Shown: piece after piece, positions 44,291-64,000 of the stretch | Layout of the letters: each line of letters starts with the position of its first letter | Numbering within the stretch: position 1 is the stretch's first letter | IMG/VR virus record: IMGVR_UViG_3300024999_000042 | DNA: 64,000 bases | Direction: 5' to 3' (one strand) | Origin: a virus | Program-made: the position numbers and the translations under genes | The notes under the pieces: generated by a model | Databases searched by the model: none | What the model saw: only the letters and a program-made list of their open reading frames with translations | Told to the model about the DNA's origin: nothing

Positions 44291-44300
44291 GTGCTAAAAC

Positions 44301-47024: not shown

Positions 47025-47054
47025 AGTAGTAAAAAATACTACTCTTTTTTCTTT
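47023..47054 (+). terminator. intrinsic terminator
   Basis: AGAGTAGTA-aaaaa-TACTACTCT followed by a T-tract. Confidence 0.8.
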
Positions 47055-47525: not shown

Positions 47526-47586
47526 AAGGAGTAGAAATACTTCTTTCTTTTTTCTAAAATAAACAATAAAGGAGCACGGATCACAT

Positions 47587-47769: not shown

Positions 47770-47872
47770 ATTCCTTTTTCTTTTTCCTAAATGTTAAAAT
47801 AATATTAGACATTGAGTCAGATAAATGATATTATAGGTTATCAGATTAATTACATAAGGAGTTGAGCCACAA

Positions 47873-48226: not shown

Positions 48227-48471
48227 AAGAGCTTCTTTTCTTTTTGCTATACATTATACCATTTACTAATCTAAAAGCCTTAAATAACCCTTTCTGGCCT
48301 TATCAATGCTATCCGGATAATCTTGCTATACTCACATTCTTAATTCAATATTTTACTTTCAAACTCTTGTTTTATCTTATTTGATTATATAAAGTGTAAA
48401 ATAATTTTATTTAATATGGTTTTTTGTATTGTTTTTATGGTATAATAAATTAGAAAATTAAATATAAGGAA

Positions 48472-48741
48472 GTGTTGAACATGCGAGAGAAAAATCAAGA
48501 CAAAGTTTACCATTGCGCAAAGATTAAAACTGCAATATCTCACGCCATTAAAGACGGAATTATAAATGTTGCTGAAGACTTTGGAAGTCAAGAAGAATTA
48601 AACGAATGCATACAAGTAGCAGAAGAGAAAGGGAACTACAGAGATTACTGGTGCGACAAAGAAAACAATACATACTTTAGGTTCCAAATCGAACAAAACG
48701 ATGATACAATCTATATAGATTTAGGGTATAGAATTAATTAG
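48472..48741 (+). CDS. hypothetical protein
   Basis: 89 aa with terminator. Confidence 0.55.
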   Translation: MLNMREKNQDKVYHCAKIKTAISHAIKDGIINVAEDFGSQEELNECIQVAEEKGNYRDYWCDKENNTYFRFQIEQNDDTIYIDLGYRIN

Positions 48742-49207
48742 AGAACTTTAAATAGTTCTCTTTTCTCAATTTATAAAAGGAGGTGAATAAAAAATGAATC
48801 CTGAACTATCCGAGGACACCAGAGCAACAACCATAATAATATCTAATAAATCCTATGATTTACACATAATAAATGACTTATATTACATTTGCACTCATGG
48901 GACACACCAGATCATAAAAATAATGACCGAAAAAGAATATAATGATATTAACATCTAGGACTGAATAAGTCCTTTTTGTTTGCTTTTCTCTGTCCACGTA
49001 GGAAATACATTTTTAATAAATGTCCTTATACGGTGTACCAACCCCCAAAACTTTGTACGCTTGTGAAAATATATAATCCTTTTCCACCAAATGCCCATTT
49101 TAATGGAATACTGGGACCAAGAAACGCAATAAAACAAGATATAATTATTGTGTTTATATCATTTCTGTGATATTATTAGTTAACATATTTAAGGAGGTTT
49201 TCACCCC

Positions 49208-49744
49208 ATGAAGGTTTTAAAACTTGAATCGCTCCAAACTGAATTTGCAGGGACAATCACAAAAAATGGAGCCAAGTATGACGTTACATATCCTAATAGT
49301 ACTAAAGTATTTTCCTTTAAATGCAATCTCAAAGCATTAGCGGAAAGATTACATATTCAAATTGCCGATGTCGATCTAGCAGATAAAAATGTCTATACCG
49401 AAAAGTATGATAAAGTGGAAATTGCAAGACAAAATAATGAAATGGCTTGGAATTTAGTAATCAGTAACAGGGATAAAATTCCACAATTGATTAAAGAGCT
49501 TGCAGTATTCGCGCAAACTCAAGACAAAGATACGGTTTTAAAAAATAGCTCATCTATATTGTTTGCGGATATAAACATAAAAAAGCAAACTATCGAATTT
49601 ATTACTTTTGTTTCTATCGGTCACGAAGAACTAAAGAAAAAAGCGAATCATTATTACTGGGAAGTTTGCACCTTGTCAAATGGTAGGGTTGCAGGGAATT
49701 TAGACAATTTAATAAATAGAGTATTAAGGGAATTTGGAGCCTGA
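49208..49744 (+). CDS. hypothetical protein
   Basis: 178 aa, AAGGAGG RBS, terminator. Confidence 0.65.
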   Translation: MKVLKLESLQTEFAGTITKNGAKYDVTYPNSTKVFSFKCNLKALAERLHIQIADVDLADKNVYTEKYDKVEIARQNNEMAWNLVISNRDKIPQLIKELAVFAQTQDKDTVLKNSSSILFADINIKKQTIEFITFVSIGHEELKKKANHYYWEVCTLSNGRVAGNLDNLINRVLREFGA

Positions 49745-49992
49745 AAAGGCTCTTTTATTTTTGTTCCAAATACTAGGAAACCTATATTGTATAGGGTATC
49801 ATATATCCCTTAGAACGTCATAATTGGCACTCTAAGGGTTTTATATTGTTTCTGCTATTAATCCTACTAATAGCAAAACATAACCCTTTAAACCTCAGTA
49901 AACATAAAAATAATTTTATCAGACATGACTATTTTTATTAATTATGTGCTATAATATTAATATCAGATACATATTAAGAGGAGGTTTTTGAA

Positions 49993-51195
49993 ATGGCTGA
50001 ATTTAAAATTTATTCCATTCCTGAAATGAACTTTCCCGAACTCGAAACCAAACTTGCTAAACTTAACAAAAAGGCTGTAAAACTAAATTGCGAACCGATT
50101 GTGTTAACTTTAGTTGGTACAGTGGATCTTAAAATTTCCGTTCCTTGGTCAAATTATCCAGTCTTAGTAAGACATAATCAAATCACTATTTCCGGTGTAG
50201 CTCCAATTATTGCAGGATGGGAGTTAATCGCAAGTTGCGAAGGATTTGAAAATGGAACATTAATTAAGTCAATCCCTGAAAAGGAATATCCTGAAAAGTA
50301 TCGTCAAATGTTAGTTTGCGAACATTGCAACAGTGACCGCAACAGAAAATATACCTTTATTGTGCGGAACGTAGAAACTAATGAATACAAAATGGTAGGA
50401 AAATCATGTTTAAAAGACTTTTTGGGCCATGCAGATCCAAATTTTTACGCTCGGATGTTGGAATATCTTGCAGAGTTTGAAGAAAGGGAATACAGTGAAA
50501 TCCCTTTTGGATACAAGTCAAGGATTGAAACAGAAAACTATTTAACCTTTGTAGCAGCCTGTATCCGTGAAAATGGATGGTTATCCAGAACTAAAGCAAA
50601 GGAAGAAGAGGAAGGAGGAATATCAACCGCAGACTATGCAGAAATATCAATGGAGAATTTTGGAAAGATAGTCACGGATTACAGAGGAAATATTATAGAA
50701 TACCCAATCCCAACTGAACACGACAAAGAATTAGCAAAAAAATCTCTGCAATGGGCCAAGGAATTAACAGACTTGAAAAACGATTACCTTTACAATATCA
50801 ACCTTCTTGCTCATGAATCCTCAATAACTCACAAGGAATTAGGTTTTGTTGCTTCAATCGTTTCAAGTTTCACCAGACAAATGGAAAGGGAAATCATAAA
50901 CGAGCAGAAGGAAACGGCACAAAAACAAGAATTAATATCTCAGTATATCGGCAGTATCGGCGAAAAAATCCAAACAGAGCTAACCTATATCAATTCATTC
51001 AGTTTTGAAACACAATGGGGAGCAGGACACATACACAAATTCTTAGATACAGAAGGAAATGTTTTTATCTGGAAATCATCGAAATATATTGAAGTGGATC
51101 AAGGTCAATTAGTTAAAATCAAAGGCACAATAAAAGATCACAGCGAATACGCCGGAGCAAAGCAAACAATACTCACAAGATGTAAAATTGCTTGA
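49993..51195 (+). CDS. phage protein with Zn motif and C-terminal OB-fold-like domain
   Basis: CEHC..RNR..VGKSCLKDFLG; C-terminal YIG.IG...F.D.EGN.F.W...IKGT.K.H.EY...KQT.L.R. Confidence 0.65.
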   Translation: MAEFKIYSIPEMNFPELETKLAKLNKKAVKLNCEPIVLTLVGTVDLKISVPWSNYPVLVRHNQITISGVAPIIAGWELIASCEGFENGTLIKSIPEKEYPEKYRQMLVCEHCNSDRNRKYTFIVRNVETNEYKMVGKSCLKDFLGHADPNFYARMLEYLAEFEEREYSEIPFGYKSRIETENYLTFVAACIRENGWLSRTKAKEEEEGGISTADYAEISMENFGKIVTDYRGNIIEYPIPTEHDKELAKKSLQWAKELTDLKNDYLYNINLLAHESSITHKELGFVASIVSSFTRQMEREIINEQKETAQKQELISQYIGSIGEKIQTELTYINSFSFETQWGAGHIHKFLDTEGNVFIWKSSKYIEVDQGQLVKIKGTIKDHSEYAGAKQTILTRCKIA

Positions 51196-51204
51196 AAGGA
51201 TACT

Positions 51205-51238
51205 AAAGACTAGGCCACAAACCTAGTCTTTTCTTTTG
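51205..51238 (+). terminator. intrinsic terminator
   Basis: AAAGACTAGG-ccacaaa-CCTAGTCTTT plus T-tract. Confidence 0.8.
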
Positions 51239-51532
51239 CCTATAAATATAATATAAGAAGCCACCAGACGCGATATAAGCGGTCAGAACATCATATCTGA
51301 TATAATCCTCTATCAACATTATTCTACCCTTTAAAAATCCATTTTTATTGGGTATTTTGATTTTAAGAAGTGGGTTAGGAGTAGGGTTTTAGGGTTTATG
51401 TTTTATCGATTTTATTGAATTGTAAAATAATTTTATAAAAATTGATTGACAAATTATATAAATTCATAGTAAAATGGATTGAACGGTAAATTTAATTAAT
51501 AATCATTATTTATATAATCGTAAAATAATATC

Positions 51533-51560
51533 TTGACATACTCCTAAATTTGATTATAAT
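51533..51560 (+). promoter_or_regulatory. sigma-A type promoter
   Basis: TTGACA-16-TATAAT, preceded by TAAAATAAT. Confidence 0.65.
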
Positions 51561-51592
51561 TATAAGTAAGCATTAAAGGAGGTTTTTACATA

Positions 51593-51949
51593 ATGAATAA
51601 AACTGAAAAGGCAATTATCCTTAAGCAATATCACGATATGTTCTACGCTCAGTCAGTCCTAGAAATTGATAAGTCAGATTCTATTAGAGAATTTTCATTC
51701 TTGCTAAAATCTTTAGGAATGACTAAAGAAAAATACGAAGTTGAAAATAAAATACTATCAGAAGAAAAAGGAATAACTGGCACAGCTAAAGAAATGTATT
51801 CTTTAATATTTGAATCATTCGCAAAATATAATTGTTATGTTAACTACGACTTAAAAGAAATTGATCTTTATTATGATTCGCTCGAATGGAAAATGACACA
51901 AGAAGAAAACAAATGCCACAAAGCAAGAATAAGTTATCTGACCAACTAA
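51593..51949 (+). CDS. hypothetical protein
   Basis: 118 aa with RBS and terminator. Confidence 0.6.
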   Translation: MNKTEKAIILKQYHDMFYAQSVLEIDKSDSIREFSFLLKSLGMTKEKYEVENKILSEEKGITGTAKEMYSLIFESFAKYNCYVNYDLKEIDLYYDSLEWKMTQEENKCHKARISYLTN

Positions 51950-52062
51950 AGGAGGGTAAACCTCCTATTTTCTTTATCTAATAGTGTTTTTACCTTTAAT
52001 TAGTTTGAAGTCCTTAGAAGTGTCATTCTGAGCGTGTAACGCTAATATAATGTATAAAGGAG

Positions 52063-52503
52063 ATGTTAAATATGAAAGGTTATAAACTTGCAAATGGAAA
52101 CTATATCACTGGCAAAGAAATTCAAGCAAGGAATTCTAAATTTAAAAAAGATCAAAAAATATCAAGGGAATTGTTCGCTAGAAATCAGGAACTAAATGAT
52201 AAAATTATCACAGCTTCAATTTGCAGCAACATGATAAAACAGATTAAAGACCGCGAAGCACTAATTAAAAACAACATCATTAGAGGGGAAATTATTCAAT
52301 CATTACGGAGCAATAATCCTTTTACTTATCGGAAATTCTTGATTATATGGGATCTTATCAACTCTGATTATAATCAGGTATTATATGATCTTAATCGAGG
52401 TAAAATTAATAAGGATGATATAGTTGGCGCAATTGATTATATTAATAAATTTTCAGAAAATTTAATAGACGAATACTGGAAAGATACATTAATTAAACCT
52501 TAA
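52063..52503 (+). CDS. hypothetical protein
   Basis: 146 aa with RBS and terminator. Confidence 0.6.
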   Translation: MLNMKGYKLANGNYITGKEIQARNSKFKKDQKISRELFARNQELNDKIITASICSNMIKQIKDREALIKNNIIRGEIIQSLRSNNPFTYRKFLIIWDLINSDYNQVLYDLNRGKINKDDIVGAIDYINKFSENLIDEYWKDTLIKP

Positions 52504-52880
52504 GACTAGAAAATAAAATTCTAGTCTTTTTCTATGCTCATTCAGCCCGTTAAACTCATTTTCCCTTTTCAATCCTTTACAAACTAAAAACACACGAACA
52601 GAAACGGCCTTTCCTGCCCTCAGATTGTATTACCCTATATAATCTTACCTTAATACATTTCAAACGTCTCAGAATCAAAATAGGGTTATATCTGGTATCG
52701 GATCAATAATTAACCCTTAAATTGTTTGTAAGAATAGTACAATAGAATAGGACTTTTACCTATATACAAATATAATATTTTAGTTTAAAATAAGGTACAT
52801 AGAGAAGCACACGAACAAAACCTGCTAGGAAGTAGTTAGTAGGCCAAGACATAAATCCAGAAATAATTTTCTTTAACCTA

Positions 52881-52909
52881 TTGACTTAGTAACCACAATC
52901 CATTAAAAT
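52881..52909 (+). promoter_or_regulatory. sigma-A type promoter upstream of a long untranslated region
   Basis: TTGACT-17-TAAAAT. Confidence 0.6.
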
Positions 52910-53400: not shown

Positions 53401-53622
53401 GATAAAAACATTCTACTAAATCCCTTTAGTTTATTCATTATTACAATTTAATCATAACAATTACATTAAACTTGCATAACGAAATCAAAATGCAGGTTGT
53501 TGTAATTTAATGTTAAATTGATTATACTTAAGGCTGAAGGGATTAATTCTTAGTTGGGCATTGGGTAGTAAATATTATACAATAACTATCTAATGTCGAA
53601 TTAAGAAAGGTGGTAATAATTA

Positions 53623-53778
53623 ATGATTGAAATTGGAAAATCCTCAAAACATTCTGGCTGTATTGCTTGTATGAATACAGATAATGACTTAAAAGATGTC
53701 AAATTAGGTCAATCCGTTGTAGTTACTCTCTGTAAAAAATGCAGAGAAGAATTAGGCGAACTTTTTAAAGGAGAGTAA
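53623..53778 (+). CDS. 51-aa zinc-finger protein (not in ORF track)
   Basis: AAGGTGG RBS; CIAC...LCKKC. Confidence 0.6.
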   Translation: MIEIGKSSKHSGCIACMNTDNDLKDVKLGQSVVVTLCKKCREELGELFKGE

Positions 53779-53906
53779 TTACTCCAATCAAAAAGACAAT
53801 TCATGGTAGTTGAAGTGTCTTTTTCTAAATTATATCATAATAATTATTAAAATATGGTATAATTTAGAAAGGACATTAAGTCCTTTAAATTGAGGAGGTT
53901 TTTAAA

Positions 53907-54260
53907 ATGACTAACAAAAAATGGTTTTGTACTCCTGATGCTGAAACAAAAAAGGGTATTTCCGGCTATAGGTTTTACCTAGCCACAAAGAAAATTTATG
54001 AGTCAGATGTCGAACTTTCTCCTTCTCCTTGGGTTCATGCTGAAGCAATGGAAACGGAAAAAGATTTTTTCTTCACTTCTAGAGATATTGCTTATCCAGA
54101 AATTACGAAACGATTAGGAGAAGTAGAAAGATTAATACTACATCCTTGTTATGTATGTAGTATTACTTTTGACGAAAAACTACTTTATCGTGTTGTAGAT
54201 GATAATGACGAAAAAACAGGAGAATATATTTGCCATGAATGTCTAAATAATGACGACTAA
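53907..54260 (+). CDS. hypothetical protein with C-terminal zinc finger
   Basis: CYVC...CHEC; GAGGAGG RBS. Confidence 0.6.
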   Translation: MTNKKWFCTPDAETKKGISGYRFYLATKKIYESDVELSPSPWVHAEAMETEKDFFFTSRDIAYPEITKRLGEVERLILHPCYVCSITFDEKLLYRVVDDNDEKTGEYICHECLNNDD

Positions 54261-54385
54261 GAAACATGAGATATTCTTTTTTAAAAGTAGCCTGAAACGG
54301 GAATACCAAATAACAATAACAACTAATTATTTGGTGTTCCTTGCTTGAGTCTATTTGAAACAAAAATAAAAAGGAGTGGTAAAAA

Positions 54386-55768
54386 ATGACTGAAGAGAAA
54401 AAGGAAATCACTTACACCACGGAAAAACGAGACATTGGAACCCTAGTCGAGCATATCGAAAAGCAATATTACACCGTAGGAAAACACCTTCAAGACTTCC
54501 TCACCGCAAAAAAGCAAGAAGAAGGGAAAGAAATTAAAACCCTTCGAGACTATATGGAATCACAAAGGGCTTATGTCTGGGAGACTTGGAGAGCATCAAA
54601 CCTAATCCAGACTGTTCTTCTTAAAAACCCTATTCCTGAAATAACAGTCTACCGTGCAGACGACAAAAGCCAGTTTAGAAAGACAGTCGATGGGCAGCAG
54701 AGATTAACCAGTATCTATCTATTCATTAACAATGGGTTTAAACTTGATGTATCAAAAACCATGTTCCCTAAATTCACAAAAGAAGGCGAACAATTCAACG
54801 CTATGGAAACACTTCACGGCAAAACATTCTCAGAACTTCCAGAGTTATGGCAGGACATTATCAAAGACTATCAATTGCGTATAACAACCATGAACAATTG
54901 TAGCGAGGAAGACGCTGAAAAGGCATTCGTTCAAATGAATTCAGGAGCCAAAGGTTTAAAACCTTCTGAAATTCGGAAGGCAGCAATGGGGAGCGACACA
55001 AGAAAATTCTTTAGATCGATTTTAGATAGTGACTGGATTTTACATGCACTAACCCCACTGGCAACAAAGGGCAACGCCGGAGATGAAATTCTGTCACAAG
55101 TCATCACGCTAATACATAACAATGGCCCAATTGAGTTGTCTAAGGATAATATTGACAAATCAATTTATGGATTTAGAGAACTAGGATTACCGGAAGAAAT
55201 TGAGGATGACATGATAAATGTCTCTAATTACCTCAGTCAAGCAACAGAAATTTGGATTGAGAACAAAAAGAAAGAAGATGCAAAGGAAGGAAGTAAAAGA
55301 GTTAAAAACTATGCAACCTATAGATATACATGGCTGAATAAGACTAATACTGTCATGCTGATGTATTCGGCCTACTCTGCATTAAGAAATAATGTTGAAG
55401 TTGAAGAGTTTTCTGCATGGGCTTATAAATTTTTTCAGGCTCCAACAAAGGAGTATAAGGAAGGGTTGCAAGATAAGGTTATTGACCTAAAACGTGTGGA
55501 AATGCGGTTAAATGCTATTAATACTGAGTTGGGAAAACTAAGTTCTTTTGAACAGGTTGAGGTTGTTGAGGAAGAAATTGAACAAGAAGAAGAACAACCT
55601 CAACAAAGTGAAAACCTTGAACCTGCTATAACAGTGACCGCAGAAGAGTTCGGCGAAGGAAATCAAGAAGAACAGTCAGAACAAATTATCAATGATGAGC
55701 AAGAACAGGATCAAGAATTCCAAGAAGAAACCCAAGCGATTCTAAACATTGTCAATAATGTTGCTTAA
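54386..55768 (+). CDS. DUF262 (ParB-like/GmrS) domain protein with acidic tail
   Basis: QRAYVW...LIQTVL...PIPEI...VDGQQRLT...F.QMNSG..L...EIRKA. Confidence 0.85.
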   Translation: MTEEKKEITYTTEKRDIGTLVEHIEKQYYTVGKHLQDFLTAKKQEEGKEIKTLRDYMESQRAYVWETWRASNLIQTVLLKNPIPEITVYRADDKSQFRKTVDGQQRLTSIYLFINNGFKLDVSKTMFPKFTKEGEQFNAMETLHGKTFSELPELWQDIIKDYQLRITTMNNCSEEDAEKAFVQMNSGAKGLKPSEIRKAAMGSDTRKFFRSILDSDWILHALTPLATKGNAGDEILSQVITLIHNNGPIELSKDNIDKSIYGFRELGLPEEIEDDMINVSNYLSQATEIWIENKKKEDAKEGSKRVKNYATYRYTWLNKTNTVMLMYSAYSALRNNVEVEEFSAWAYKFFQAPTKEYKEGLQDKVIDLKRVEMRLNAINTELGKLSSFEQVEVVEEEIEQEEEQPQQSENLEPAITVTAEEFGEGNQEEQSEQIINDEQEQDQEFQEETQAILNIVNNVA

Positions 55769-56338
55769 TGCTAAAATAATTGTATCTTGAGTCTAGACAA
55801 TAACAATAGTTAATTTGCTATTGTCTAGCATTCGAGGTAAAGTTATTAAAACTGAAGGAGTTAGATTAAATGAAAGTAAGTGAAGTTATCAAAAACAATA
55901 GTTATTATATGATTACTAAAAATGGTAAAATATTGGGAATAAACAGTGTTGATAACGAACTTTTAAATTCGGAAGTTAAAAAAATACAAGTAATCAAGGG
56001 TTTGCATAAAGACATTACATGTATTAGATTGTAGAATAAAATCATGTATTGATTGGATTATGGGAGAAGGTTAAAAATGTTTACTAAATATCTTATGAGT
56101 TATAAGTTCGAAAATGAAAAGCATTATGAAGAATCTGTAGCAAAATCAGTTAGAGATGTTTGTAAATATTTTAGGAAACTTTATCCAGAAGTAACAGATG
56201 TCAAAGTTGAAAAAGTTATAGGTCAAGTTAATATTTATACACAAACTATTTAGGTGTGTATGTTCTCAGAGCGTTTCAACTATAACAATCGAGGTTGAAA
56301 CGTTGTCGAGGGTATATAAACTAAAGGAGGTTAAATAA

Positions 56339-56650
56339 ATGCAATTCTTAACTCATTATGAGCGATATAACGTCAACAAATGGGAACAACGTCAAATAAT
56401 GCCACAATCTAATTTCATTGCCTTAAACAACTCATTTATGAACCATAATTCTTCGCTTATTGGTTTCCAAGTCGAACACGAAGACAAACGAGTTCATTAT
56501 TCAGTTAGTAATATGTTTCTCGAAAGATTGCAAGTTCAATTCCCTAACAATTGGTTTAACATTCTTAATGATGGTATGATAGCAGAGTTTAAACAGTGGG
56601 CAGGTAACATAATAGCAATAACAAATGTTATTTGCCTAGTTTCGAAGTAA
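56339..56650 (+). CDS. hypothetical protein
   Basis: 103 aa with AAGGAGG RBS. Confidence 0.55.
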   Translation: MQFLTHYERYNVNKWEQRQIMPQSNFIALNNSFMNHNSSLIGFQVEHEDKRVHYSVSNMFLERLQVQFPNNWFNILNDGMIAEFKQWAGNIIAITNVICLVSK

Positions 56651-56671
56651 GGAAAGGAAGTGTATTTTTAA

Positions 56672-56914
56672 ATGAAAAATTTTGTAATTAATAACGTGAA
56701 TATGACCAAAGAAGATTTTTCGCAAATGATTAACTATGTAGGGTCAAGAGCTATCGCATTAGCTGAAGTAGAAGAAGGTGTTGCAATTAATACTTCTAGT
56801 CCCTCAAGTGAAAAAGATGTTCATAGTAGTATTATATTCTTCTTTGAAAAATGGAATAATGCTTATAAATTAGATTACGGACGAAATGATATTGAAATTA
56901 CTTGGAGGGAATAA
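56672..56914 (+). CDS. hypothetical protein
   Basis: 80 aa with RBS. Confidence 0.55.
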   Translation: MKNFVINNVNMTKEDFSQMINYVGSRAIALAEVEEGVAINTSSPSSEKDVHSSIIFFFEKWNNAYKLDYGRNDIEITWRE

Positions 56915-57254
56915 CCCTAGCAAACACGAATTTTAATCTAATTATGAAAGGAGTTTTTAGAATGATTGAAGAGATTAAATTCTAATTTTCAAATGGTAAC
57001 AAGGAAGGAGTTTAAAAGATGGATAAACTAAGATTAATGTGTAATAATTGTTACAAAGTGGTAGTTGATTGCGAAGATGTTGTTATTGACTGTCCTTATT
57101 GTGGTTCTATTGAAACATGAATCTTAAAAATTCCAATGACATCCTAACATTCATTATATATTTTGATTGTATGGAAATAGGGCGAAGTGACATAACAATA
57201 ACAGGACTTCGCCTTGATTCGAGGCTATCAAAATTTAAAGGAGTGTGTATTTAA

Positions 57255-57743
57255 ATGAAAAAGTATGATGTAAGATTTTGTAGTTGTGGAAGAGTACATT
57301 TTATCGATGAGGCAAAGATAAATAATGCTATTGAAAATGAAAAACAGGTTTTAGTAATTTGTAATAATTGTGGCAATTCTTTTGTTGTTGGAGCAGATAA
57401 GCAAGAAGATGAAGACGGCGAAACATGTTACATGATGTATTCTTCTAGTATGAGGGATACAGAAATAAATGATATGTCAAGAATTGACAGTATCGTTTTT
57501 ACAGCAGGGGAGCAGGTTAGAATGATGACAGGTGGAGAGGCCACATTTCATGGTAGCGGAATATTCATTGATTGGGATACAAAAAAGCCTAGTGATATCT
57601 CCAATGAAGAATGGGAGAAAATGAGAATGACTGTTAATACACGACATACAATCAATTGGATCAAAGATGACAACAAACTTGAGCAAATGAGTCATTATCT
57701 AGTAGGCATCGATTGGAAAGGCACTAAGTACGAAAAGAGTTAA
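57255..57743 (+). CDS. hypothetical zinc-binding protein
   Basis: FCSCGRVH...CNNCG. Confidence 0.65.
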   Translation: MKKYDVRFCSCGRVHFIDEAKINNAIENEKQVLVICNNCGNSFVVGADKQEDEDGETCYMMYSSSMRDTEINDMSRIDSIVFTAGEQVRMMTGGEATFHGSGIFIDWDTKKPSDISNEEWEKMRMTVNTRHTINWIKDDNKLEQMSHYLVGIDWKGTKYEKS

Positions 57744-57787
57744 CACCCAAATGAATCAAACTTTTAAGGAATAGAAAGGAGTAAAAA

Positions 57788-57976
57788 ATGAAAGAACATA
57801 ATCAAAATGAATATTGGACTTACGGAAAACCTTATGGTCGTGTAACACCAGTTTATATTATTGATGGAGAAATTAGAGGCACAGAGCATGGTTCAGCACA
57901 ATATCTAATAGATACCTATCAGATGGATATCCTAGAGGCTTATAGGTATGTTTGTGATATTACTAATCATAGGTAA
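57788..57976 (+). CDS. small protein, paralog of 63082-63306
   Basis: Shared NEYWTY...TPVY.IDGEIRG.EHGS.QYLIDTY. Confidence 0.7.
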   Translation: MKEHNQNEYWTYGKPYGRVTPVYIIDGEIRGTEHGSAQYLIDTYQMDILEAYRYVCDITNHR

Positions 57977-58405
57977 TTAAACCAAAATAAATTCACTTTT
58001 AACCTATTATTTTAGCAATTTGTACTGAGATAATAACAATGCTCAGTGTGAAAACGTAAACTAAAATTAGTAATAAAAGGAGCGTGAAACAAATGGCAAA
58101 ACTCAAACGGTCAAATTTGAACTAGATGGAGAAATTCTAGAAGAAATTGTAGTTCTAATTGATGATGAGAACAGACCTAATTCCATGATTAAAATCAAGG
58201 ATATTGAAAACAGGATTATTTCAGAACACGGCAAAAGACCAAAATTAATCTTTGTAATGACTCAAAGGGATGACAGAAGCATATATAAATTTAATTAAAA
58301 TTCTTGCCTATGAAAGCTTTAATTATTCTCTAGGTCGTGATATAATGTAAATATAAATATTACGGCTTGGAGAGTATTTAAGACTCTTTAAAAATCTAAA
58401 GGAGC

Positions 58406-59653
58406 GTGTTACATATGACTAAAAATTATATTAAAAACCTTGAAACTGGTAAAATCGAACTGCATTTCTCAAAACCAGAATATCAAGCATTATCCGATGA
58501 ACTCAAAAAGGAAATCAAAAGCTCATATTTATTTTCTGGTATTGCTAAAGCTTGGGTATCTCGTTCTGTTAATAATCAATGGAGAGCGATCCAAACAGCT
58601 AAAAAACTAGGATTTACTGAGGAAGAAAAAACTGGTGAACGCTTAACCTTTGCTGAACAACTAGAGCGCAAGCAAGAAAAAGCTGAACACAGAGCAGAGC
58701 GTTACGACCAATATGCAGATAATGCAGAAAAACGTGCTGAAAATTTTCAAGCCGATTTTAATCAATATCGAAAAGATTGGTCTTGGTTAACACAACCAAT
58801 TATCCATGGTCATTCTGGAAGTCGTGCATTTGGCAATCATAAAGCAAAGGTAATAGCACGATATGAAAAAGGTTTTGAAGAATATCAAAAAAGCGATTAT
58901 TATAAAGAGCGTGCATGTACGGCAAGAGCCACCGCAAATAATTCAAAATTACAAAACAAGGTTTATCTTGTTGGGAAAATTAAAGAGAGTAATAAACAAG
59001 TTAAAACATATCAGGATATTGTAGTTAAATATGAAGAAGCACTTTATAAAATTCAACAAGGCGAAGAATTAAAAAATCGTTCAGGCGAAATTTTAACAGA
59101 AATTTATATCGAACAGAAAATAGATGACATGCTTGAAAAATATGAATGGGAATATGACAAACTTGAGTTTTTTGAAAAATGTCTAAAAGATATTGGTGGC
59201 GTTCAGTTTTCGAAGGATAATATAAAAGTAGGTTACATTGTCAATATTAAAAGGTGGGGAAAATGTGAAATTGTTTCAACAGGGCCAAAGAATATTCAGT
59301 TTAAAATACTAGAAGGTGGAGCAAGTGGAGGAATGTTAATAGATCCATATGCAGCAATCGTAGAGATATTAGAAACAAATGAAGTCGAGGAAGTAAAAGC
59401 AGAAAATCCTTTTAAAATTGGCGATATTGTTTGCAAACACAGACCAGCCGATAATAGTATTTATAGAGCTTTTCAAATTGTTAAAACTACTGACAAATCT
59501 GTAACAATTCAAAGAATCGAAGTGTTAGACCATAAACCAGTTAAAGATACTTTTATTAGTGATCAACAAGAAAGGAAACAAGTTAAAAAAGATAGACAAG
59601 GAAATTTCGTAATAAATCATGATGACTGGTATTTATACAGGTATACTGCATAA
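58406..59653 (+). CDS. DUF3560-like protein
   Basis: E..AE.RAERY...A...QPIIHGH.GSR...AR.EKG..E..K..YY..RA..A pattern. Confidence 0.65.
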   Translation: MLHMTKNYIKNLETGKIELHFSKPEYQALSDELKKEIKSSYLFSGIAKAWVSRSVNNQWRAIQTAKKLGFTEEEKTGERLTFAEQLERKQEKAEHRAERYDQYADNAEKRAENFQADFNQYRKDWSWLTQPIIHGHSGSRAFGNHKAKVIARYEKGFEEYQKSDYYKERACTARATANNSKLQNKVYLVGKIKESNKQVKTYQDIVVKYEEALYKIQQGEELKNRSGEILTEIYIEQKIDDMLEKYEWEYDKLEFFEKCLKDIGGVQFSKDNIKVGYIVNIKRWGKCEIVSTGPKNIQFKILEGGASGGMLIDPYAAIVEILETNEVEEVKAENPFKIGDIVCKHRPADNSIYRAFQIVKTTDKSVTIQRIEVLDHKPVKDTFISDQQERKQVKKDRQGNFVINHDDWYLYRYTA

Positions 59654-59771
59654 CAATTTATCAATAACAGTTTAACTATTCTCTGTAACGTGCTATAACG
59701 TATTAAACCAAATATAATATAGTGCGGTACGGAGAGCAATTAAGCTCAAAAAATCTAGGAGGTTACATATT

Positions 59772-60194
59772 ATGGCAATCAAAACATTTGTGAAGGAATA
59801 TAAAAATTATGGTTGGAATGAGATTAAAGTTATTGACTTTGAAACTGGGGAGTTTACTCAATACAATGTATGCAATACTATTGGGTTTCCTTTTGGTACT
59901 CCTTATCAAACTACAGTTTTTGAAATGGGTTATACTTCAGTAAAAGAATGTTTAAAAACTCTTAAAGAGCGTAATTTGCTAGATTATGAAGTCGATTGTA
60001 AGGAGCAAAAAGAGTCCGAAAGAATTGGTTATATTAATTTGGGAGTAGAAAGGATTAAACGAGTAGGAAGAGTTAACACAAAAGATTTTGAAGATGTTTG
60101 CAACAAATTAAGTGGTTATGGAATGGGATTTTGTGATTCTCAAAATTCTATTACTGCATGTTATTTGCATAGTTTAGAAGAAGGAGCGTGTTAA
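59772..60194 (+). CDS. hypothetical protein
   Basis: 140 aa with AGGAGG RBS. Confidence 0.6.
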   Translation: MAIKTFVKEYKNYGWNEIKVIDFETGEFTQYNVCNTIGFPFGTPYQTTVFEMGYTSVKECLKTLKERNLLDYEVDCKEQKESERIGYINLGVERIKRVGRVNTKDFEDVCNKLSGYGMGFCDSQNSITACYLHSLEEGAC

Positions 60195-60538
60195 CAATGA
60201 ATACTAAAACTAATGGCATTTGGGTATGGACTGCAAAAGCAGAAGAAAAGGCAAAAGAATTAAACCTTGAGGAAAGAAAAGAAAATATTCCTGCATGGTT
60301 AGGATATTCTCTTTTAGGCCAATTTGCTCCTCAAAAATGGGTTGAACTTGGATATGTAAAGGAATTAAAGTGCCAAGTATTAATCCATAACTCTAAAAAC
60401 AAAATACCTGAATGGGTTGATGGTTTTATAACAGGAACCATTGCCGGAGATGTAGGAGAAGATTTTGAGCGAATCAATGTTTTAGCAAATGGAAATAATT
60501 TAATTGGTTGTCATCCTGATTGTGTCAAGCAAATATAA
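60188..60538 (+). CDS. hypothetical protein
   Basis: 116 aa coupled to the upstream gene. Confidence 0.55.
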   Translation: MLTMNTKTNGIWVWTAKAEEKAKELNLEERKENIPAWLGYSLLGQFAPQKWVELGYVKELKCQVLIHNSKNKIPEWVDGFITGTIAGDVGEDFERINVLANGNNLIGCHPDCVKQI

Positions 60539-60656
60539 TTATTTTGATAGTGCCTAGACATCCTGCAATCTATATAACAGCGAACTATGTGTGGTTGCAG
60601 GGTTTTGGAGTTTATCAAAGTGAGTAATGTGATAAACTAGAAGGAGTGAAATTATT

Positions 60657-61013
60657 ATGACAGAATTATGTGTACATAATGAAGGTATTTGTTCAATGGT
60701 TGACCCATTTATAACAACTAATGAAAGATGTTTGACTTTTAAGTATGCAGGAAATGACAAAGTGGAAAATGCAATAAATCTTTCAAGTTTATTAGATCAA
60801 AACAAAATAGATCATGTTTGCTATCTTGAAACTGGGAATTATTACCCTTGTCAATTTATCCTCAGAAGAAGTGGTAGAAAATGGAATGATATAATGAAGT
60901 TGGTTAATAGTGTTCAGTCCCCAAAGTATGACTATGCTAAGATTGACTTCTACATAACTGACGAAGTAAAGAAAAATGTTTTAGGTAAAATTCAAGTAGT
61001 TCAATATTGTTAA
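60657..61013 (+). CDS. hypothetical protein
   Basis: 118 aa with RBS. Confidence 0.55.
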   Translation: MTELCVHNEGICSMVDPFITTNERCLTFKYAGNDKVENAINLSSLLDQNKIDHVCYLETGNYYPCQFILRRSGRKWNDIMKLVNSVQSPKYDYAKIDFYITDEVKKNVLGKIQVVQYC

Positions 61014-61124
61014 CCCTTCGAAACTTACAATTTATGGTATAACAGCCGGCCATATTTCGTTCATGGACCTTCCATAACGCTTGCGTGTATGCTATACTTA
61101 CATTATCATAAAGGAGGTGTCAGA

Positions 61125-61268
61125 ATGCAGGTTACACTCAACACTAGACTAGAGGTAGAGGTCAGGCGAAGACTAGACGCTTATGTTCTAAAAGTTAACC
61201 GTCCTATGGCTCAAATAGTCGCAGAGGCCATTCAAAAATATCTAGACGAAAAGGAGAAAAAAGAGTAA
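61125..61268 (+). CDS. 47-aa ribbon-helix-helix transcriptional regulator (not in ORF track)
   Basis: AAGGAGGTG RBS; MQVTLNTRLEVEVRRRLDAYVLKVNRPMAQIVAEAIQKYL fits the RHH pattern. Confidence 0.75.
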   Translation: MQVTLNTRLEVEVRRRLDAYVLKVNRPMAQIVAEAIQKYLDEKEKKE

Positions 61269-61275
61269 ATTTTTA

Positions 61276-61304
61276 TTGACAGGTGCTTGCAAGCGTGGTA
61301 TAGT
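61276..61304 (+). promoter_or_regulatory. sigma-A type promoter with a palindromic spacer
   Basis: TTGACA-17-TATAGT; spacer contains GCTTGCAAGC. Confidence 0.7.
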
Positions 61305-61355
61305 GTTATTAATCAAGTAAATATTATTTATTAATTTAAGAAAGAAGGAATTAAG

Positions 61356-61622
61356 ATGTTCAGAGACGATGAAGAAAAAGTTATGGGAGCTAAAATTCAA
61401 AAAGTCAAAAGCGCAATCAGTAAAGTTTTAGAGGAATGTGTAAATGAGTTACCTGAAGTTCAATTAGGATGGAGTGGATCTGTAATTGAGGTTTATCTAT
61501 CAGGCGGTAATTATCAAACTAGAAATGTCATTGAAAATCATTTTGTAAACAGTAGAAAATACAAAGGAGTTGAAATTCAAAATAACAATACCAAAAAACG
61601 TATTAGTTTTTATTTAGCGTAA
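61356..61622 (+). CDS. hypothetical protein
   Basis: 88 aa. Confidence 0.55.
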   Translation: MFRDDEEKVMGAKIQKVKSAISKVLEECVNELPEVQLGWSGSVIEVYLSGGNYQTRNVIENHFVNSRKYKGVEIQNNNTKKRISFYLA

Positions 61623-61648
61623 GTAAAACTTAAAAGGAGGATATAACA

Positions 61649-61864
61649 GTGAGTAAGAAAGCATCAATAAGTAAATATATTCAACGATTGGCAGATAGGT
61701 TTAACCTTGACGTTACTGCAACGATTGAAAAAGGTGAATATGATACCACGCACAAAGTATATCATTTTAGTGGTAATTTCCTTGCAAATTTTGAAGCATT
61801 AGAGAGGGAAGTGGAAGGATATACAAAATCAACAGAGTTTCCTGCGGCATTGATAAAAGATTAA
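61649..61864 (+). CDS. hypothetical protein
   Basis: 71 aa with AAGGAGG RBS. Confidence 0.55.
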   Translation: MSKKASISKYIQRLADRFNLDVTATIEKGEYDTTHKVYHFSGNFLANFEALEREVEGYTKSTEFPAALIKD

Positions 61865-62090
61865 TATAATACGTTGATTGAAGGTTGCATACCAATAATT
61901 CTATAACAAATTGTCGTGCGACATTGAATCAAAATATTGTGAATGAAAGAAGGAATATATCATACTAACAATCAAAAAACTTCAAGATGCTAAAAAGGAA
62001 TTAATCAAACGTGGTGGAGCAATTTATGTTGTTCAATCTGCCGGGAAAGTTGAAGTTTGGGTTAATGCTGGAGGTTACAGTGCTGTATCA

Positions 62091-62450
62091 ATGGGTACTC
62101 ATGTAATTCAAATTCTTGACGAAAGACAAATTAAGTATGATAATGTATTTTATCAAAGTAAAAATCAAGAAATGAACTTGCAGGAATTTTGCGATATGGT
62201 TAATGATGAGTATTGCACTGAAGATATTAAAATAGAAGATGCTACACTTATTAAATCCTATAATATCGGAAGCAAAACAACCGAATTGCGTTTCACGCCA
62301 AAAGCAAATACTCAAACATGGCCTGGATATGATGATTCATTACCATTGCGCTATGCAGGTTATTGGTACGGAACACATGATCATCATGAACATATCGGAA
62401 AAACTGAGAAGGAAGCAATGGAATATCTTGCAGGAAATTATGGGATTTGA
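62091..62450 (+). CDS. hypothetical protein
   Basis: 119 aa; the start may lie further upstream. Confidence 0.5.
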   Translation: MGTHVIQILDERQIKYDNVFYQSKNQEMNLQEFCDMVNDEYCTEDIKIEDATLIKSYNIGSKTTELRFTPKANTQTWPGYDDSLPLRYAGYWYGTHDHHEHIGKTEKEAMEYLAGNYGI

Positions 62451-62727
62451 TTAATTGTATTTGGAATAGGCAATAACAATAGCATCATAACAGAACGACA
62501 TAACAGGTTGTTGCCTTTCTTTAAAGGAAAAGTTAATTAAATATGAAGGAGTGGAGACAATGATTAAATATCGTGAAATATACCCATGTTGGAAAGAAAG
62601 AGAAGTTAAAAGTCAAGACTTAGTTAGTGAAATTCAATCTTTAGCAAAATGTAACATTAGAACCGCAAGAAAGATTATTGAAACAGTTAGAAAATCTAAA
62701 TCCTAGCAAACAATAATTTTCTGGGAA

Positions 62728-62958
62728 ATGAAAGGAAGTAAAATTATGAATAATAACTTAACAATGACCGCAGAGCAAGCGAAAATTTATGTAAGCAAGC
62801 GTATTATTCCTCAAGTCTATGGAAGTGATCAAGGAATCTTAAGAGAATTGATATTTTCAATGGCAAAAGATATTAATTGGAATGATGTAGGTAAAAGAAT
62901 TCTTAGAGAACATCCAGAATTAAAGCAGGAAGATATAGATCAATTAAAGACTACTTAG
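62728..62958 (+). CDS. hypothetical protein
   Basis: 76 aa. Confidence 0.5.
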   Translation: MKGSKIMNNNLTMTAEQAKIYVSKRIIPQVYGSDQGILRELIFSMAKDINWNDVGKRILREHPELKQEDIDQLKTT

Positions 62959-63081
62959 GGCATTTAAAGCCCTTCTAAGCATCCTGTAATGCTCATAACA
63001 GCATAACACCAATGCTTGCAGAGCAGGGAGTTTAGAATGGTTTTGAAGACTCTAAAAATAAATTAATGGAGGAATGTTTGA

Positions 63082-63306
63082 ATGAAAAATAACTTACAAT
63101 TTACCAAAAAAGAACACGGTGAAAATGAATATTGGACTTATCGCAACTGCAATTCCAGAGGTAATGCAACTCCAGTTTATAGTATTGATGGAGAAATTAG
63201 AGGTAGTGAACATGGTTCGTCACAATATCTGATAGATACTTACGACATGAATATTTTAGATGCTTATACCTATGTTCATGAAATTTCTACACACGGCAAT
63301 CGTTAA
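63082..63306 (+). CDS. small protein, paralog of 57788-57976
   Basis: GGAGG RBS; shared motif with 57788-57976. Confidence 0.7.
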   Translation: MKNNLQFTKKEHGENEYWTYRNCNSRGNATPVYSIDGEIRGSEHGSSQYLIDTYDMNILDAYTYVHEISTHGNR

Positions 63307-63568
63307 TACTCTAAAGAGCTTATGCTCTTTGCTCAGTCCTTGTATAACAAAACTCAGAATAACAGTGACTATACAGGGGTTGACCAAAGGATATAAACTT
63401 AACCAATATATCCTAAAATAAATTAAAGGAGGTAAAACAATGTCTTATAAAATCCTAAATCAATACATATCAATTTGCAAAAATCAAGATGTACCTGCAA
63501 ACTTTTCTGGACTAATTGCTTTCAATGCTATATTCAAAAAATAAAATTATGAAAGAAGGTTAATCAAA

Positions 63569-63859
63569 ATGCAAAAACCTAAAAACATCAAAAATTTAAC
63601 CCATTCTGCCTCAAAACTAAACTCCTTATATCTAGGCAAAGAAATTGTTTACACAGGCACATCCAATACCCTAAGACCTTACAGGGGAGAAATCATTAAC
63701 ATTGCTTACTATTCAGACTTAGATCCTGTTCCATATGCAGAAATTAAATTAAAATTATGGAATAATCGAACTGTAACTAAAATTCTTCCATTATCAGATA
63801 TTGTTTTGGCATCTTCTTTGAAGAAAACTAAAACTAAAAAATCCAAGTTAGCAGCATAA
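63569..63859 (+). CDS. hypothetical basic protein
   Basis: 96 aa with RBS. Confidence 0.55.
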   Translation: MQKPKNIKNLTHSASKLNSLYLGKEIVYTGTSNTLRPYRGEIINIAYYSDLDPVPYAEIKLKLWNNRTVTKILPLSDIVLASSLKKTKTKKSKLAA

Positions 63860-64000
63860 TTCAATATCTTTTATATGGACACTGTAAAGCGTAAAATAAT
63901 TATAACAATTGATTCCCATACGTTGTACAGTGTAATTCTTAAAAGGTATTAGTTAAACTCAATGCTAATATCTCAACTATTGTATAACAAAATCAAAAGG

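Follow-up and report, generated by a model that had tools for sequence, protein, structure and literature searches.

What connects the genes of a block in which the genes themselves are swapped? The window analysed here, a stretch of 64,000 nucleotides from an uncultured low-GC phage-plasmid, contains a block of small co-oriented, hypervariable accessory genes (53.4-64 kb) in which almost every gap between genes holds a long hairpin whose loop displays the same six letters, ATAACA. The original prediction described 14 such stem-loops with unrelated stems, nearly all carrying ATAAC(A/G) at the stem top or in the loop, and proposed a shared post-transcriptional control system acting in front of early genes, through either a phage RNA-binding regulator or RNase III-type processing hairpins, with hairpin promoters as a less likely option. 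The observation itself holds, and could be extended. The interpretation is only partly supported, since a single sense-strand family, defined by a loop motif on unrelated stems, is evident whereas neither a reader protein nor any cleavage has been shown, and the description of the genes as early is an assumption. No Rfam family matches the element and no paper describing it was found.

Hairpins and loop motif across the block

All 14 stem-loops fold as predicted. Thirteen carry ATAAC(A/G) and the one at 58327 does not, as originally stated, and the predicted G-U counts (four in the 58327 stem, three in the 63333 stem), the doubled motif copy (54310-54321) and the triple copy (62473-62505) are all correct. 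The stems first noted are, however, the upper parts of irregular composite helices of 25-35 bp, and a fifteenth element was identified. Folding z-scores range from -1.95 to -7.6, and for 12 of the 15 elements none of 200 shuffled sequences folds as well. ATAACA is the most enriched hexamer in the 25 intergenic gaps of 53.44-64 kb (22 observed, 1.85 expected, z=15), ranking above the Shine-Dalgarno (SD) word AAGGAG, and a motif-blind scan of hairpin loops also ranks it first, but only in this block. The extended motif is H-ATAACA-R. Ten of 17 intergenic motif clusters lie inside perfect stems of at least 8 bp, against 3.5+/-1.6 with shuffled flanks. Within the block, motif copies run 31 to 2 by strand.

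All elements lie on the plus strand. The first and best conserved, E01 (53444-53520, z -5.5), is a three-tier 27-bp hairpin with ATAACA at 53454 and ATAACG at 53476 in the apical loop, and a sigma-A-like promoter, TTGTAA(53500)-17-TATACT(53528), overlaps its 3' arm. E02 (54285-54356, z -5.2) is a composite hairpin with loop AAATAACAATAACA in front of a stand-alone DUF262/GmrSD_N (ParB-like) gene (54386-55768), which is present in all 13 relatives compared, although this conservation is partly by design because the relatives were found with this gene. E03 (55775-55847, z -7.2) carries ATAACA at the loop edge of a composite hairpin, and E04 (56244-56332, z -4.9) is a composite hairpin with loop UAUAACAAUCGA. 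The fifteenth element (56597-56638, z -4.1) is a 14-bp hairpin with ATAACA in its loop, lying inside the 3' end of gene 56339-56650 and 49 nt before the next ATG (56672), such that one element is built into the end of a coding region in a way that keeps the usual distance. E05 (57157-57237, z -5.6) is composite with loop GACAUAACAAUAACAGG, whereas E06 (58018-58053) is short and the weakest of the set, with AAUAACAA in the loop (z -1.95; 8 of 200 shuffles fold as well).

E07 (58318-58385, z -7.6) is a 20-bp hairpin lacking the motif, whose 5' arm carries a conserved TTTAAT-17-TGaTATAAT extended -10 promoter. Its paralogue E08 (59669-59746, z -5.8) reads TATAAC(G) at the -10, which gives the ATAACG copy at 59695, where relatives have TATAAT or TATACT. 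The conserved TTTAAT-17-TGnTATAAT promoter in the 5' arm of these two elements was missed by the original prediction. E09 (60533-60630, z -4.35) is a composite helix of about 36 pairs, 10 of them G.U, with UAUAACAG in the loop. E10 (61865-61941) is composite with CUAUAACAAA in the loop (z -3.2; 4 of 200 shuffles fold as well), E11 (62463-62520, z -3.9) has three motif copies (62473, 62487, 62500), E12 (62955-63055, z -6.0) is a long composite helix of about 36 pairs with two copies, E13 (63316-63400, z -3.45) is a composite hairpin with two copies, and E14 (63874-63938, z -4.3) has UUAUAACAAU in its apical region and precedes a gene that runs off the window.

A few copies are not structured in this way. 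Two (ATAACA at 61039 and ATAACG at 61074, within 61039-61079) lie outside any strong hairpin, and none was confirmed there, in the promoter/leader region of an Arc-like ribbon-helix-helix repressor gene (61125-61268; phrog_3180, E 3e-5) that is itself flanked by sigma-A-like promoters. Outside the block, two unstructured direct copies (ATAACAGA, 14 nt apart; 45574-45593) follow a terminator, and the homologous place in a complete 178-kb relative has four copies just upstream of a TTGACA-17-TAATAT promoter.

Strand, conservation and gene exchange

About 45 related metagenomic loci carry the same arrangement, with motif copies, compared by strand in 43 related loci, at 2-4 per kb against about 0.2 per kb, and in the complete relative the motif is confined to one block of ~16 kb. 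Selection on the sense strand, which the original prediction inferred from the G-U mismatches, is supported by several analyses. With element boundaries, the plus strand folds better in 34 of 35 elements, with 145 G.U pairs on plus against 59 on minus. With fixed 100-nt windows, mean dG is -21.2 on plus against -16.4 on minus, with plus better in 229 of 297 (p=3e-25), and in strand-neutral stems G.T outnumbers A.C 397 to 192. However, genes here are probably co-oriented with replication from a putative origin-like region at 38-44 kb, and if so the sense strand is also the lagging-strand template, in which case the asymmetry cannot separate RNA from single-stranded plus-strand DNA.

The motif evolves more slowly than the remainder of the loops (0.089 differences per site against 0.220 for other unpaired hairpin columns, p=8e-5), while stems are replaced and loops kept. 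A relative has a loop-alike of E02 with near-identical flanks but unrelated upper-stem arms, although its position downstream of the DUF262 gene of that relative makes orthology uncertain. Changes among orthologues are mostly one-sided and preserve the pair as G-U, A-U or G-C. Ten orthologues of E04 show only such changes, one of them having gained a second motif copy. In the E07/E08 class, 13 sequences give 18 pairs, 8 of them compensatory, which 0 of 500 shuffles reach. Plain processing or stabiliser hairpins, in which host RNase III or blocking of 5'/3' exonucleases alone would suffice and ATAACA would be retained for a structural reason or by descent from one ancestral cassette, are compatible with the length of the helices, their position between cistrons and their lack of U-tracts, and have precedents in T7 and in the repeated SPO1 intergenic sites. 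This reading is nevertheless considered quite unlikely, because stems share no sequence while the loop hexamer is invariant and slowly evolving, the opposite of what descent without selection would give, and because a passive hairpin does not explain multiple copies per loop or avoidance of the word genome-wide.

The placement of the elements points to expression. No plus-strand intrinsic terminator occurs in 53.4-64 kb, against 10 in 44-53 kb, and the hairpins are not terminators. Nor are they sigma-A promoters, as no -35 or TG signal lies near the motif. The last motif copy lies 49-82 nt before the start codon in the window, and across relatives this distance peaks at 40-60 nt. Loops hold 1-3 copies at variable spacing, which suits a binding or cleavage tag better than a start site. 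Sequestration of the SD sequence is not general (pairing probability 0.56 with an element against 0.45 without).

Unanticipated by the original prediction, the same hairpin linker (93-100% identical) sits between unrelated genes in different relatives. E01 has 20 distinct orthologues at least 87% identical and precedes about 10 different ORF families, 8 orthologues of E03 precede at least 4 different ORFs, and 12 orthologues of E05 at 93-100% identity precede 8 unrelated ORFs and follow at least 10. Twelve of 24 block genes have no homologue in 13 relatives. Such turnover in a co-oriented array of small, mostly ORFan genes between conserved hairpins raises the possibility of single-stranded DNA recombination sites, folded on the lagging-strand template and recognised at ATAAC in the loop by a structure-specific recombinase or nuclease that would exchange cassettes, in an integron-like system carried by a phage-plasmid. 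Recognition by structure plus a very short word would resemble attC, and avoidance of the motif on both strands elsewhere would be compatible. However, this appears very unlikely. There are no conserved core sites at the hairpin base, the element stays while both neighbours change and so does not travel with its ORF, and a crossover inside a loop would pair non-matching arms. The only clear tyrosine recombinase in the complete relative (a weak sub-threshold hit also lies far from the block) is about 14 kb from the block, and no Y1 transposase was found there. The fixed distance to start codons and the conserved SD point instead to expression, and homologous recombination in conserved gaps explains the swapping, as it does for the PeSL cassettes of T4-type phages.

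A proposed intercistronic adaptor and DNA-level alternatives

The reading favoured here, held with no more than even confidence, is that the elements are sense-strand RNA hairpins acting as portable intercistronic adaptors that display AUAACA to one as yet hypothetical reader. In this view each element fills one intergenic gap, ends about 25 nt before the next start codon and has two parts, with the motif about 50-80 nt upstream of that codon. The first part is a long irregular helix of arbitrary sequence, which would insulate and probably stabilise or process the neighbouring cistrons, and which at 25-35 bp is long enough to be an RNase III substrate, as in the T7 and SPO1 early regions. The second is a single-stranded, G-poor loop holding 1-3 copies of H-AUAACA-R, a tag that would be read by a shared trans-acting factor, either a sequence-specific RNA-binding protein or a single-strand endoribonuclease, controlling the whole block together. 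Because the complete gap (hairpin, tag and SD sequence) is conserved while the ORFs differ, the elements would also work as homologous linkers, any gene placed between two of them inheriting the same expression signals. The structure, the enrichment and conservation of the motif, the strand asymmetry, the position relative to start codons and the swapping of neighbouring genes have been demonstrated by the analysis, whereas the RNA level of action, the existence of a reader and its function are inferred. No reader was identified, and no RNase III gene was detected by Pfam in two relatives. A 96-aa protein encoded at 63569-63859 (+), found only in this lineage and in 8 of 13 relatives, is predicted to be a small SH3-like barrel with a basic tail (pLDDT 75; best PDB E-value 0.04), but is only a speculative candidate for the reader.

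The second unanticipated result is less easily accommodated. Outside the block the complement TGTTAT is avoided in coding strands as much as ATAACA (38 against 62.5 expected, and 23 against 51, in the relative; 7 against 17.8, and 10 against 25.5, in the window), each being rank 1 of 30 same-composition words, the most avoided. A reader acting on RNA only predicts avoidance on the sense strand only. This keeps alive a reading at the DNA level, in which ATAACA would be the site of a sequence-specific DNA-binding regulator, such as the Arc-like repressor or a master repressor comparable to MrpR/SPBRE of SPbeta, or alternatively a minimal -10-like element for a phage-specific transcription factor, presented on the non-template strand. 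The inverted repeats would then be a separate feature (an RNA insulator, a terminator for upstream transcripts or an extruded structure), making the elements composite terminator-promoter cassettes like the PeSLs, which provide a precedent for promoter plus stem-loop cassettes (PMC2839356). The unstructured tandem copies beside sigma-A-like promoters in two genomes and the presence of the Arc-like gene in the block favour this reading, as do the overlap of E01 with a promoter and the TGnTATAAT box that in the E07/E08 class sits where other elements carry ATAACA. The motif-to-ATG distance (49-82 nt) also resembles the -10-to-ATG distance of the sigma-A promoters of the block (27-70 nt).

However, a DNA-level reading is judged unlikely, although it is the strongest of the alternatives. 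Orientation is almost absolute and the motif sits in loops, which a duplex-binding protein does not need, and 1-3 copies at variable positions are odd for a start-site element lacking any -35 or TG signal. About 15% of stem pairs are G.T, which would be A.C on the other strand, making cruciform extrusion unlikely. No sigma domain was detected in the relatives, and the only phage RNA polymerase seen (YonO-like) has diverged to 22% identity between the window and the complete relative while the hexamer is unchanged. The SPbeta regions examined lack the motif.

Comparison with known systems

A close parallel is found in the PeSL cassettes (promoter-early stem-loops) of T4-type phages (PMC2839356, PMC4122927), small conserved intergenic cassettes with a stem-loop that are concentrated in hyperplastic regions full of ORFans, flank unrelated genes in related phages and serve as the point of exchange. 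However, PeSLs are defined by a strong sigma-70 promoter next to a G/C-rich terminator stem-loop that was tested as a terminator, whereas here the conserved part is a hexamer inside the loop, no -35/-10 signal is present except in the E07/E08 subclass, the stems are of arbitrary sequence without a U-tract, and the word is avoided elsewhere in the genome. The RNase III processing hairpins of phage early mRNAs (T7 R sites; SP82/SPO1 sites, Panganiban & Whiteley 1983, as cited in PMC4838370) are likewise long irregular helices between early or accessory cistrons, without a terminator tail and repeated many times within one transcription region. The SPO1 sites, however, share conserved flanks (GTTGCTAG...ATGGAGCC) around a variable hairpin and have no ATAACA, and bacterial RNase III is not known to read loops, cleavage of the present elements being only a conjecture from helix length.

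In loop-specific RNA operators read by phage proteins (lambda N-boxB, the MS2/PP7 coat operators and the T4 gp43 operator with loop AAUAACUC, which the present loops may resemble), a hairpin presents a short single-stranded sequence to one protein on a stem of largely free sequence. Those systems have one or two sites per genome with small fixed stems and loops, compared with 15-50 sites per genome, loops of 9-33 nt and 1-3 copies per loop here. Integron attC sites are structured, with almost no sequence conservation apart from a short word containing AAC, and lie between co-oriented small cassette genes, but attC has paired core sites at the hairpin base, travels with its ORF and needs an adjacent IntI, none of which applies here. 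Finally, in the control of T4 early mRNAs by RegB/RegA (PMC3014915), one phage factor reads a short RNA word near the ribosome-binding sites of many early genes and shuts them down together. RegB cuts GGAG within the SD and RegA binds at the AUG, whereas here the word is in a hairpin loop 50-80 nt upstream of the start codon.

Genomic setting and fold of the elements

The window has a G+C content of 29.3% and no nucleotide match among 50,697 phage records. It encodes a portal protein, helicases, a PhoH-like protein, an exonuclease and a 1026-aa ORF (9974-13054, minus strand) interrupted by an intein with a LAGLIDADG homing-endonuclease domain (Pfam Intein_splicing and LAGLIDADG_3). PHROG matches of this ORF outside the intein include weak large-terminase and helicase similarity, but the strongest are to families of unknown function, and hence the host protein is not firmly identified. 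A 935-aa protein (26028-28835, minus strand) is a homologue of the single-subunit, two-barrel RNA polymerase YonO, being 56% identical to that of Bacillus phage BUCT082, with weaker matches to phage c-st, Enterocloster phages and SPbeta. The late and replication genes lie on the minus strand of 1-43 kb. From 44 to 53 kb the genes are on the plus strand, and here a scan found 10 canonical plus-strand terminators (hairpin plus T-tract; 44100-52900) among genes separated by long G-poor spacers, showing that the phage does use ordinary terminators elsewhere. From 53.4 kb to the end of the window there are about 24 small plus-strand genes and no plus-strand intrinsic terminator, and it is in this last block that the hairpins lie.

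The original prediction described about 14 hairpins in this block, nearly all carrying ATAAC(A/G), and that observation is confirmed: all 14 stem-loops fold where they had been placed, with the motif copies and G-U counts that had been given. With their flanks included, the elements have folding z-scores from -1.95 to -7.6, and for 12 of 15 none of 200 dinucleotide shuffles folds as well. ATAACA is the most enriched hexamer in the intergenic gaps of the block (22 observed, 1.85 expected, z=15), ahead of the Shine-Dalgarno (SD) word. A scan of hairpin loops that was blind to the motif also ranked it first, but only for the sense strand of this block, and neither for the rest of the window nor for BUCT082. 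Alignment of 49 copies gives H-ATAACA-R, where G is almost never found before the motif and a purine follows it in about 90% of copies. The stems first noted proved to be the upper parts of composite, G.U-rich helices of 25-40 pairs. A 15th element (56597-56638) was found built into the 3' end of a gene, 49 nt before the next start codon. The last motif copy lies 49-82 nt before the start codon in the window, and this distance peaks at 40-60 nt across relatives.

The gene after the short hairpin E06 (58093-58297, plus strand) starts ATGGCAAAACTC and reaches a stop after 10 codons, whereas a 60-70-aa ORF continues in another frame from the A-run, which could reflect a sequencing error, a pseudogene or slippage at AAAA. 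The ORF after the composite hairpin E10 (61950-62450, plus strand) is open well upstream of its first ATG (62091) and has an SD-like GAAAGAAGGAA near 61945 but no canonical start codon nearby, so it may use a non-canonical start; its frame assignment remained uncertain.

Relatives, conservation and strand

Searches with the DUF262 protein of the block recovered two IMG/VR contigs of 178 and 150 kb and 43 metagenome loci. Every locus that reaches into the block has 1.3-4.5 ATAACA per kb on the gene strand and usually 0-0.4 on the other, while loci holding mainly upstream flank have fewer. In the 178-kb contig, IMG/VR UViG_3300024999_000035, which is rated complete, the motif is confined to one ~16-kb block (54 copies on one strand) plus a small cluster nearby. 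In another relative (sequence L182) the same block begins after a DNA polymerase III beta (sliding clamp) gene (1-1042) and ends with a trio of GmrSD_N, ParB_N and DUF6551 genes (12593-15516), with about 25 small genes without family in between. Beyond these loci, a non-exhaustive IMG/VR scan for triple occurrences of the motif returned only coding-sequence and tandem-repeat hits, and a profile search of genome contigs with DUF262 found no relatives and thus gave no indication of the host. BUCT082, the nearest cultured relative by the YonO-like polymerase, has no loop motif.

Since the stems are not homologous, any family-wide structural alignment would be fitted to the predicted pairs and its covariation would be circular, and selection was therefore assessed in orthologue groups instead of with a covariance model of the whole family. 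In orthologue alignments the motif columns change at 0.089 differences per site, against 0.220 for other unpaired hairpin positions (p=8e-5), 0.105 for stems and 0.43 for flanks outside the hairpin. A loop-alike of E02, the hairpin in front of the DUF262 gene, has near-identical flanks and the loop AAATAACAATAAC in a relative but quite different upper-stem arms, although it sits downstream of that relative's DUF262 gene and its orthology is uncertain. Orthologues of the composite hairpin E04 show only one-sided changes that keep the pair as G-U, A-U or G-C. A conserved 3' flank (TCGAGG/TTGGAG) suspected by eye proved to be a feature of paralogue subfamilies only, with no positional conservation over 389 elements. 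Passive hairpins with no dedicated reader do not explain the conserved loops, nor the avoidance of the word described below, and this explanation is considered unlikely.

With element boundaries taken from the fold, the plus strand is more stable than its complement in 34 of 35 cases. Fixed 100-nt windows, which remove that selection bias, give a mean energy of -21.2 kcal/mol on plus against -16.4 on minus, with plus better in 229 of 297 windows (p=3e-25), and in stems defined without regard to strand G.T outnumbers A.C 397 to 192. The selected fold is therefore on the sense strand. However, if the genes here are co-oriented with replication from the origin-like region at 38-44 kb, the sense strand would also be the lagging-strand template, in which case the strand asymmetry alone cannot separate RNA from single-stranded DNA.

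Several known types of signal were compared with the elements. None is followed by a T-run, and they lack the U-tract of intrinsic terminators. They are not sigma-A promoters, as only 17 of 257 motif-bearing elements are preceded by TGn and 3-5% have a -35-like hexamer at 16-18 nt. An exception is the subclass of E07 and E08 (58318-58385 and 59669-59746), E07 being without the motif, where a conserved TTTAAT-17-TGnTATAAT extended -10 promoter lies in the 5' arm; the E08 copy of the window has TATAAC instead of TATAAT, which creates its ATAACG. This motif-less class has 18 pairs, 8 of them with compensatory changes, which 0 of 500 shuffles reach. The block is therefore not a single operon, and some linkers combine a promoter with a hairpin. 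General masking of the SD by the base of the hairpin is not supported (pairing probability 0.56 with an element against 0.45 without). No Rfam family was hit in the whole window at gathering score, and in E-value mode the block gave only a chance miRNA-hairpin hit (26 bits against a gathering score of 108).

Linkers, avoidance of the word and candidate readers

With corrected reading frames for all but two small or uncertain genes (57019-57120 and the 61957 ORF), 12 of the 24 block genes have no homologue in 13 relatives, including the complete one, and only the DUF262 gene (13 of 13, partly by design) and a 96-aa gene (8 of 13) are common. By contrast, the intergenic elements are shared. The composite hairpin E05 (57157-57237) is 93-100% identical in 12 genomes, where it precedes 8 unrelated ORFs and follows at least 10 unrelated ORFs, and E01, the first element of the block, precedes about 10 ORF families. 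In E05 the conserved segment runs from the upstream stop codon to within 15-18 nt of the downstream start codon, with the SD in between. The order of the elements along the block is also kept between the window and the complete relative. An integron-like single-strand recombination system would explain the swapping and the avoidance of the word, but it lacks the features of attC sites. No position in the 30 nt on either side of the upper stems is conserved, as would be required of paired core sites (RYYYAAC/GTTRRRY) at the hairpin base, the conserved word being in the apical loop instead. Moreover, the only clear tyrosine recombinase in the complete relative lies about 14 kb from the block, and the element stays while both neighbours change rather than travelling with its cassette. 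This reading is the least likely of those weighed.

Shuffling of synonymous codons within each ORF showed that ATAACA is depleted in coding strands outside the block, and so is its complement TGTTAT. In the complete relative outside the block, ATAACA was seen 23 times against 51 expected and TGTTAT 38 times against 62.5, and in the window at 1-43 kb the values were 10 against 25.5 and 7 against 17.8, respectively. Each word ranks first of its 30 same-composition permutations in both genomes, and neither is depleted in BUCT082. Among 1752 hexamers they are the 9th and 11th most depleted, behind homopolymer-type words and the palindromes AGATCT (1 against 42 expected) and AGTACT (0 against 31), as counted in ORFs. 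These two palindromes each occur once in the 64 kb and AGCT-containing words are also depleted, which looks like classical restriction-site avoidance and could help to identify the host. Avoidance of ATAACA on the sense strand fits an RNA tag, but equal avoidance of the complement does not, and points to some recognition at the DNA level. Alternatively, the complement may be harmful because it would pair with the loops. A search for an anti-loop RNA carrying UGUUAU found no cluster of the complement.

A few unstructured tandem copies lie just after a terminator and before a sigma-A-like promoter, two in the window (45574 and 45588) and four at the homologous place in the relative. On the minus strand at 21774-21790, TATAAT is followed directly by ATAACA (tattataatATAACAatt) in a 1.4-kb stretch without a long ORF, upstream of the 227-aa gene and the non-coding tract that precede the late genes. 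Both-strand avoidance, the unstructured copies near promoters and the promoter-bearing subclass keep a DNA-level reading possible, though unlikely, whether as a regulator site or as a minimal promoter element with the hairpin as a separate feature.

Candidates for a factor reading the motif were sought among the encoded proteins. Most block proteins have no family. One is an Arc-like ribbon-helix-helix repressor (61125-61268, plus strand), bracketed within 61014-61355 by two similar sigma-A-like promoters (about 61080-61100, and TTGACA-17-TATAGT at 61276-61304), which looks like a small autoregulated cassette inside the block. The 96-aa protein occurs only in this lineage and is predicted to be a small, generic SH3-like barrel with a basic tail, with no significant structural match. 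In two relatives no sigma domain, Y1 transposase or RNase III (the last by Pfam) was found, so that any RNase III cleavage would need a host enzyme. Promoters of the YonO-like polymerase were also considered, but no hairpin-motif pattern appears on the late-gene (minus) strand. Moreover, the syntenic 924-aa ORF of the complete relative (874-3648, plus strand, of sequence L175) keeps the DxDxD motif but is only 22% identical to the polymerase of the window, so this polymerase evolves very fast within the lineage while the hexamer has not changed comparably, which argues against the hexamer being its promoter.

Strict strand and loop placement, G.U-rich helices, several copies per loop, the distance to start codons and the absence of promoter signals fit hairpins in the sense RNA that insulate or process cistrons and display a tag to one shared reader. 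This reading is held with moderate confidence, and the interpretation in the original prediction, a shared post-transcriptional control system, is partly supported. The folds, the enrichment and conservation of the motif, the strand asymmetry, the placement relative to start codons and the exchange of neighbouring genes are results of the analysis, whereas action at the RNA level, cleavage by RNase III, the existence of a reader and its function are inferred.

A more speculative and unlikely proposal is that the block would be a phage-borne gene-cassette array with its own site code, where the hairpins would fold on single-stranded DNA (the lagging-strand template) as well as in RNA, and a dedicated nuclease or recombinase would recognise ATAAC in the exposed loop. 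This would explain together the swapped cargo between conserved linkers, the strict orientation and the avoidance of the word on both strands everywhere else. In a sister version the loops would be recognition or decoy sites for the MazF/PemK-type endoribonucleases carried by related phage-plasmids. Each relative has two such genes and the window has none. In the complete relative they lie at contig positions 74424-74744 and 71194-71514, about 74.4 and 71.2 kb (L179:1459-1854 and L181:1351-2142, both minus strand, in sequences of that relative), one is fused to an N-terminal extension of about 120 aa, and they are next to multi-pass membrane proteins rather than an obvious MazE-type antitoxin. 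E. coli MazF cuts 16S rRNA at the ACA at 1500-1502 (PMC5416887). The loop word UAACA(A/G) would then copy the rRNA stretch around that position.

Comparison with known phage systems

The N4-type hairpin promoters have a 5-7 bp stem and a 3-nt loop and are used by a T7-like virion RNA polymerase. In the window, by contrast, stems are 6-20 bp and loops mostly 9-33 nt, and no PF00940 hit was found in two relatives, although this absence is weak because the control genomes could not have given a signal. In SPbeta, a 15-bp repeated element (SPBRE) in early promoter regions is bound by MrpR (PMC10516654). A search for ATAACA alone, made without the SPBRE sequence, found no copy on either strand in the SPbeta yonP-yonR and yonK-yonN gaps.

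The composite helices have the length of RNase III processing sites of the T7 and SP82/SPO1 type, which are irregular intercistronic helices of about 20 bp or more. However, they are not of the SPO1/SP82 type. In the SPO1 terminal repeat (sequence L177), at least five intergenic sites (7114-7211 and part of 5723-5888 on the plus strand; 11777-11851, 12194-12272, 12381-12526 and 12698-12793 on the minus strand) share GTTGCTAG-[variable hairpin]-ATGGAGCC...GGCTAC. These are presumably the RNase III processing sites known from the literature and carry no ATAACA loops, whereas the flanks of the present elements show no positional conservation.

If one factor reads AUAACA on some 15-50 hairpins, it would be a post-transcriptional, or strand-specific, control code for a whole block of accessory and probably anti-defence genes, comparable in scope to T4 RegB/RegA but working through a different design. 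A functional word that is packed into one block and avoided on both strands elsewhere can also be used as a signature to find such hidden codes in other uncultured phages.

The exchange of genes around conserved linkers is the pattern described for PeSL cassettes in the hyperplastic regions of T4-type phages, where conserved promoter plus stem-loop units flank ORFans and act as points of homologous exchange (PMC2839356, PMC4122927). The strong sigma-70-type promoter of those cassettes is absent here outside the E07/E08 subclass, and their stem-loop works as a transcription terminator, while the present hairpins are stable but without a T-run. In this view the conserved gap (helix, tag and SD) would turn any inserted ORF into an expressed and co-regulated gene, extending the PeSL idea from T4-type phages of Gram-negative hosts to an unrelated lineage of low-GC phage-plasmids with a different signal, and would offer natural insulator parts for synthetic operons in Firmicutes. 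No description of this motif or design was found in Rfam or in the papers searched. Conserved intergenic regulatory hairpins in a hypervariable phage region are known from PeSLs and from the T7 and SPO1 early regions, but what appears new is the conserved loop word on free stems, presumably read by a factor yet to be identified, its restriction to a single block and its avoidance on both strands elsewhere.
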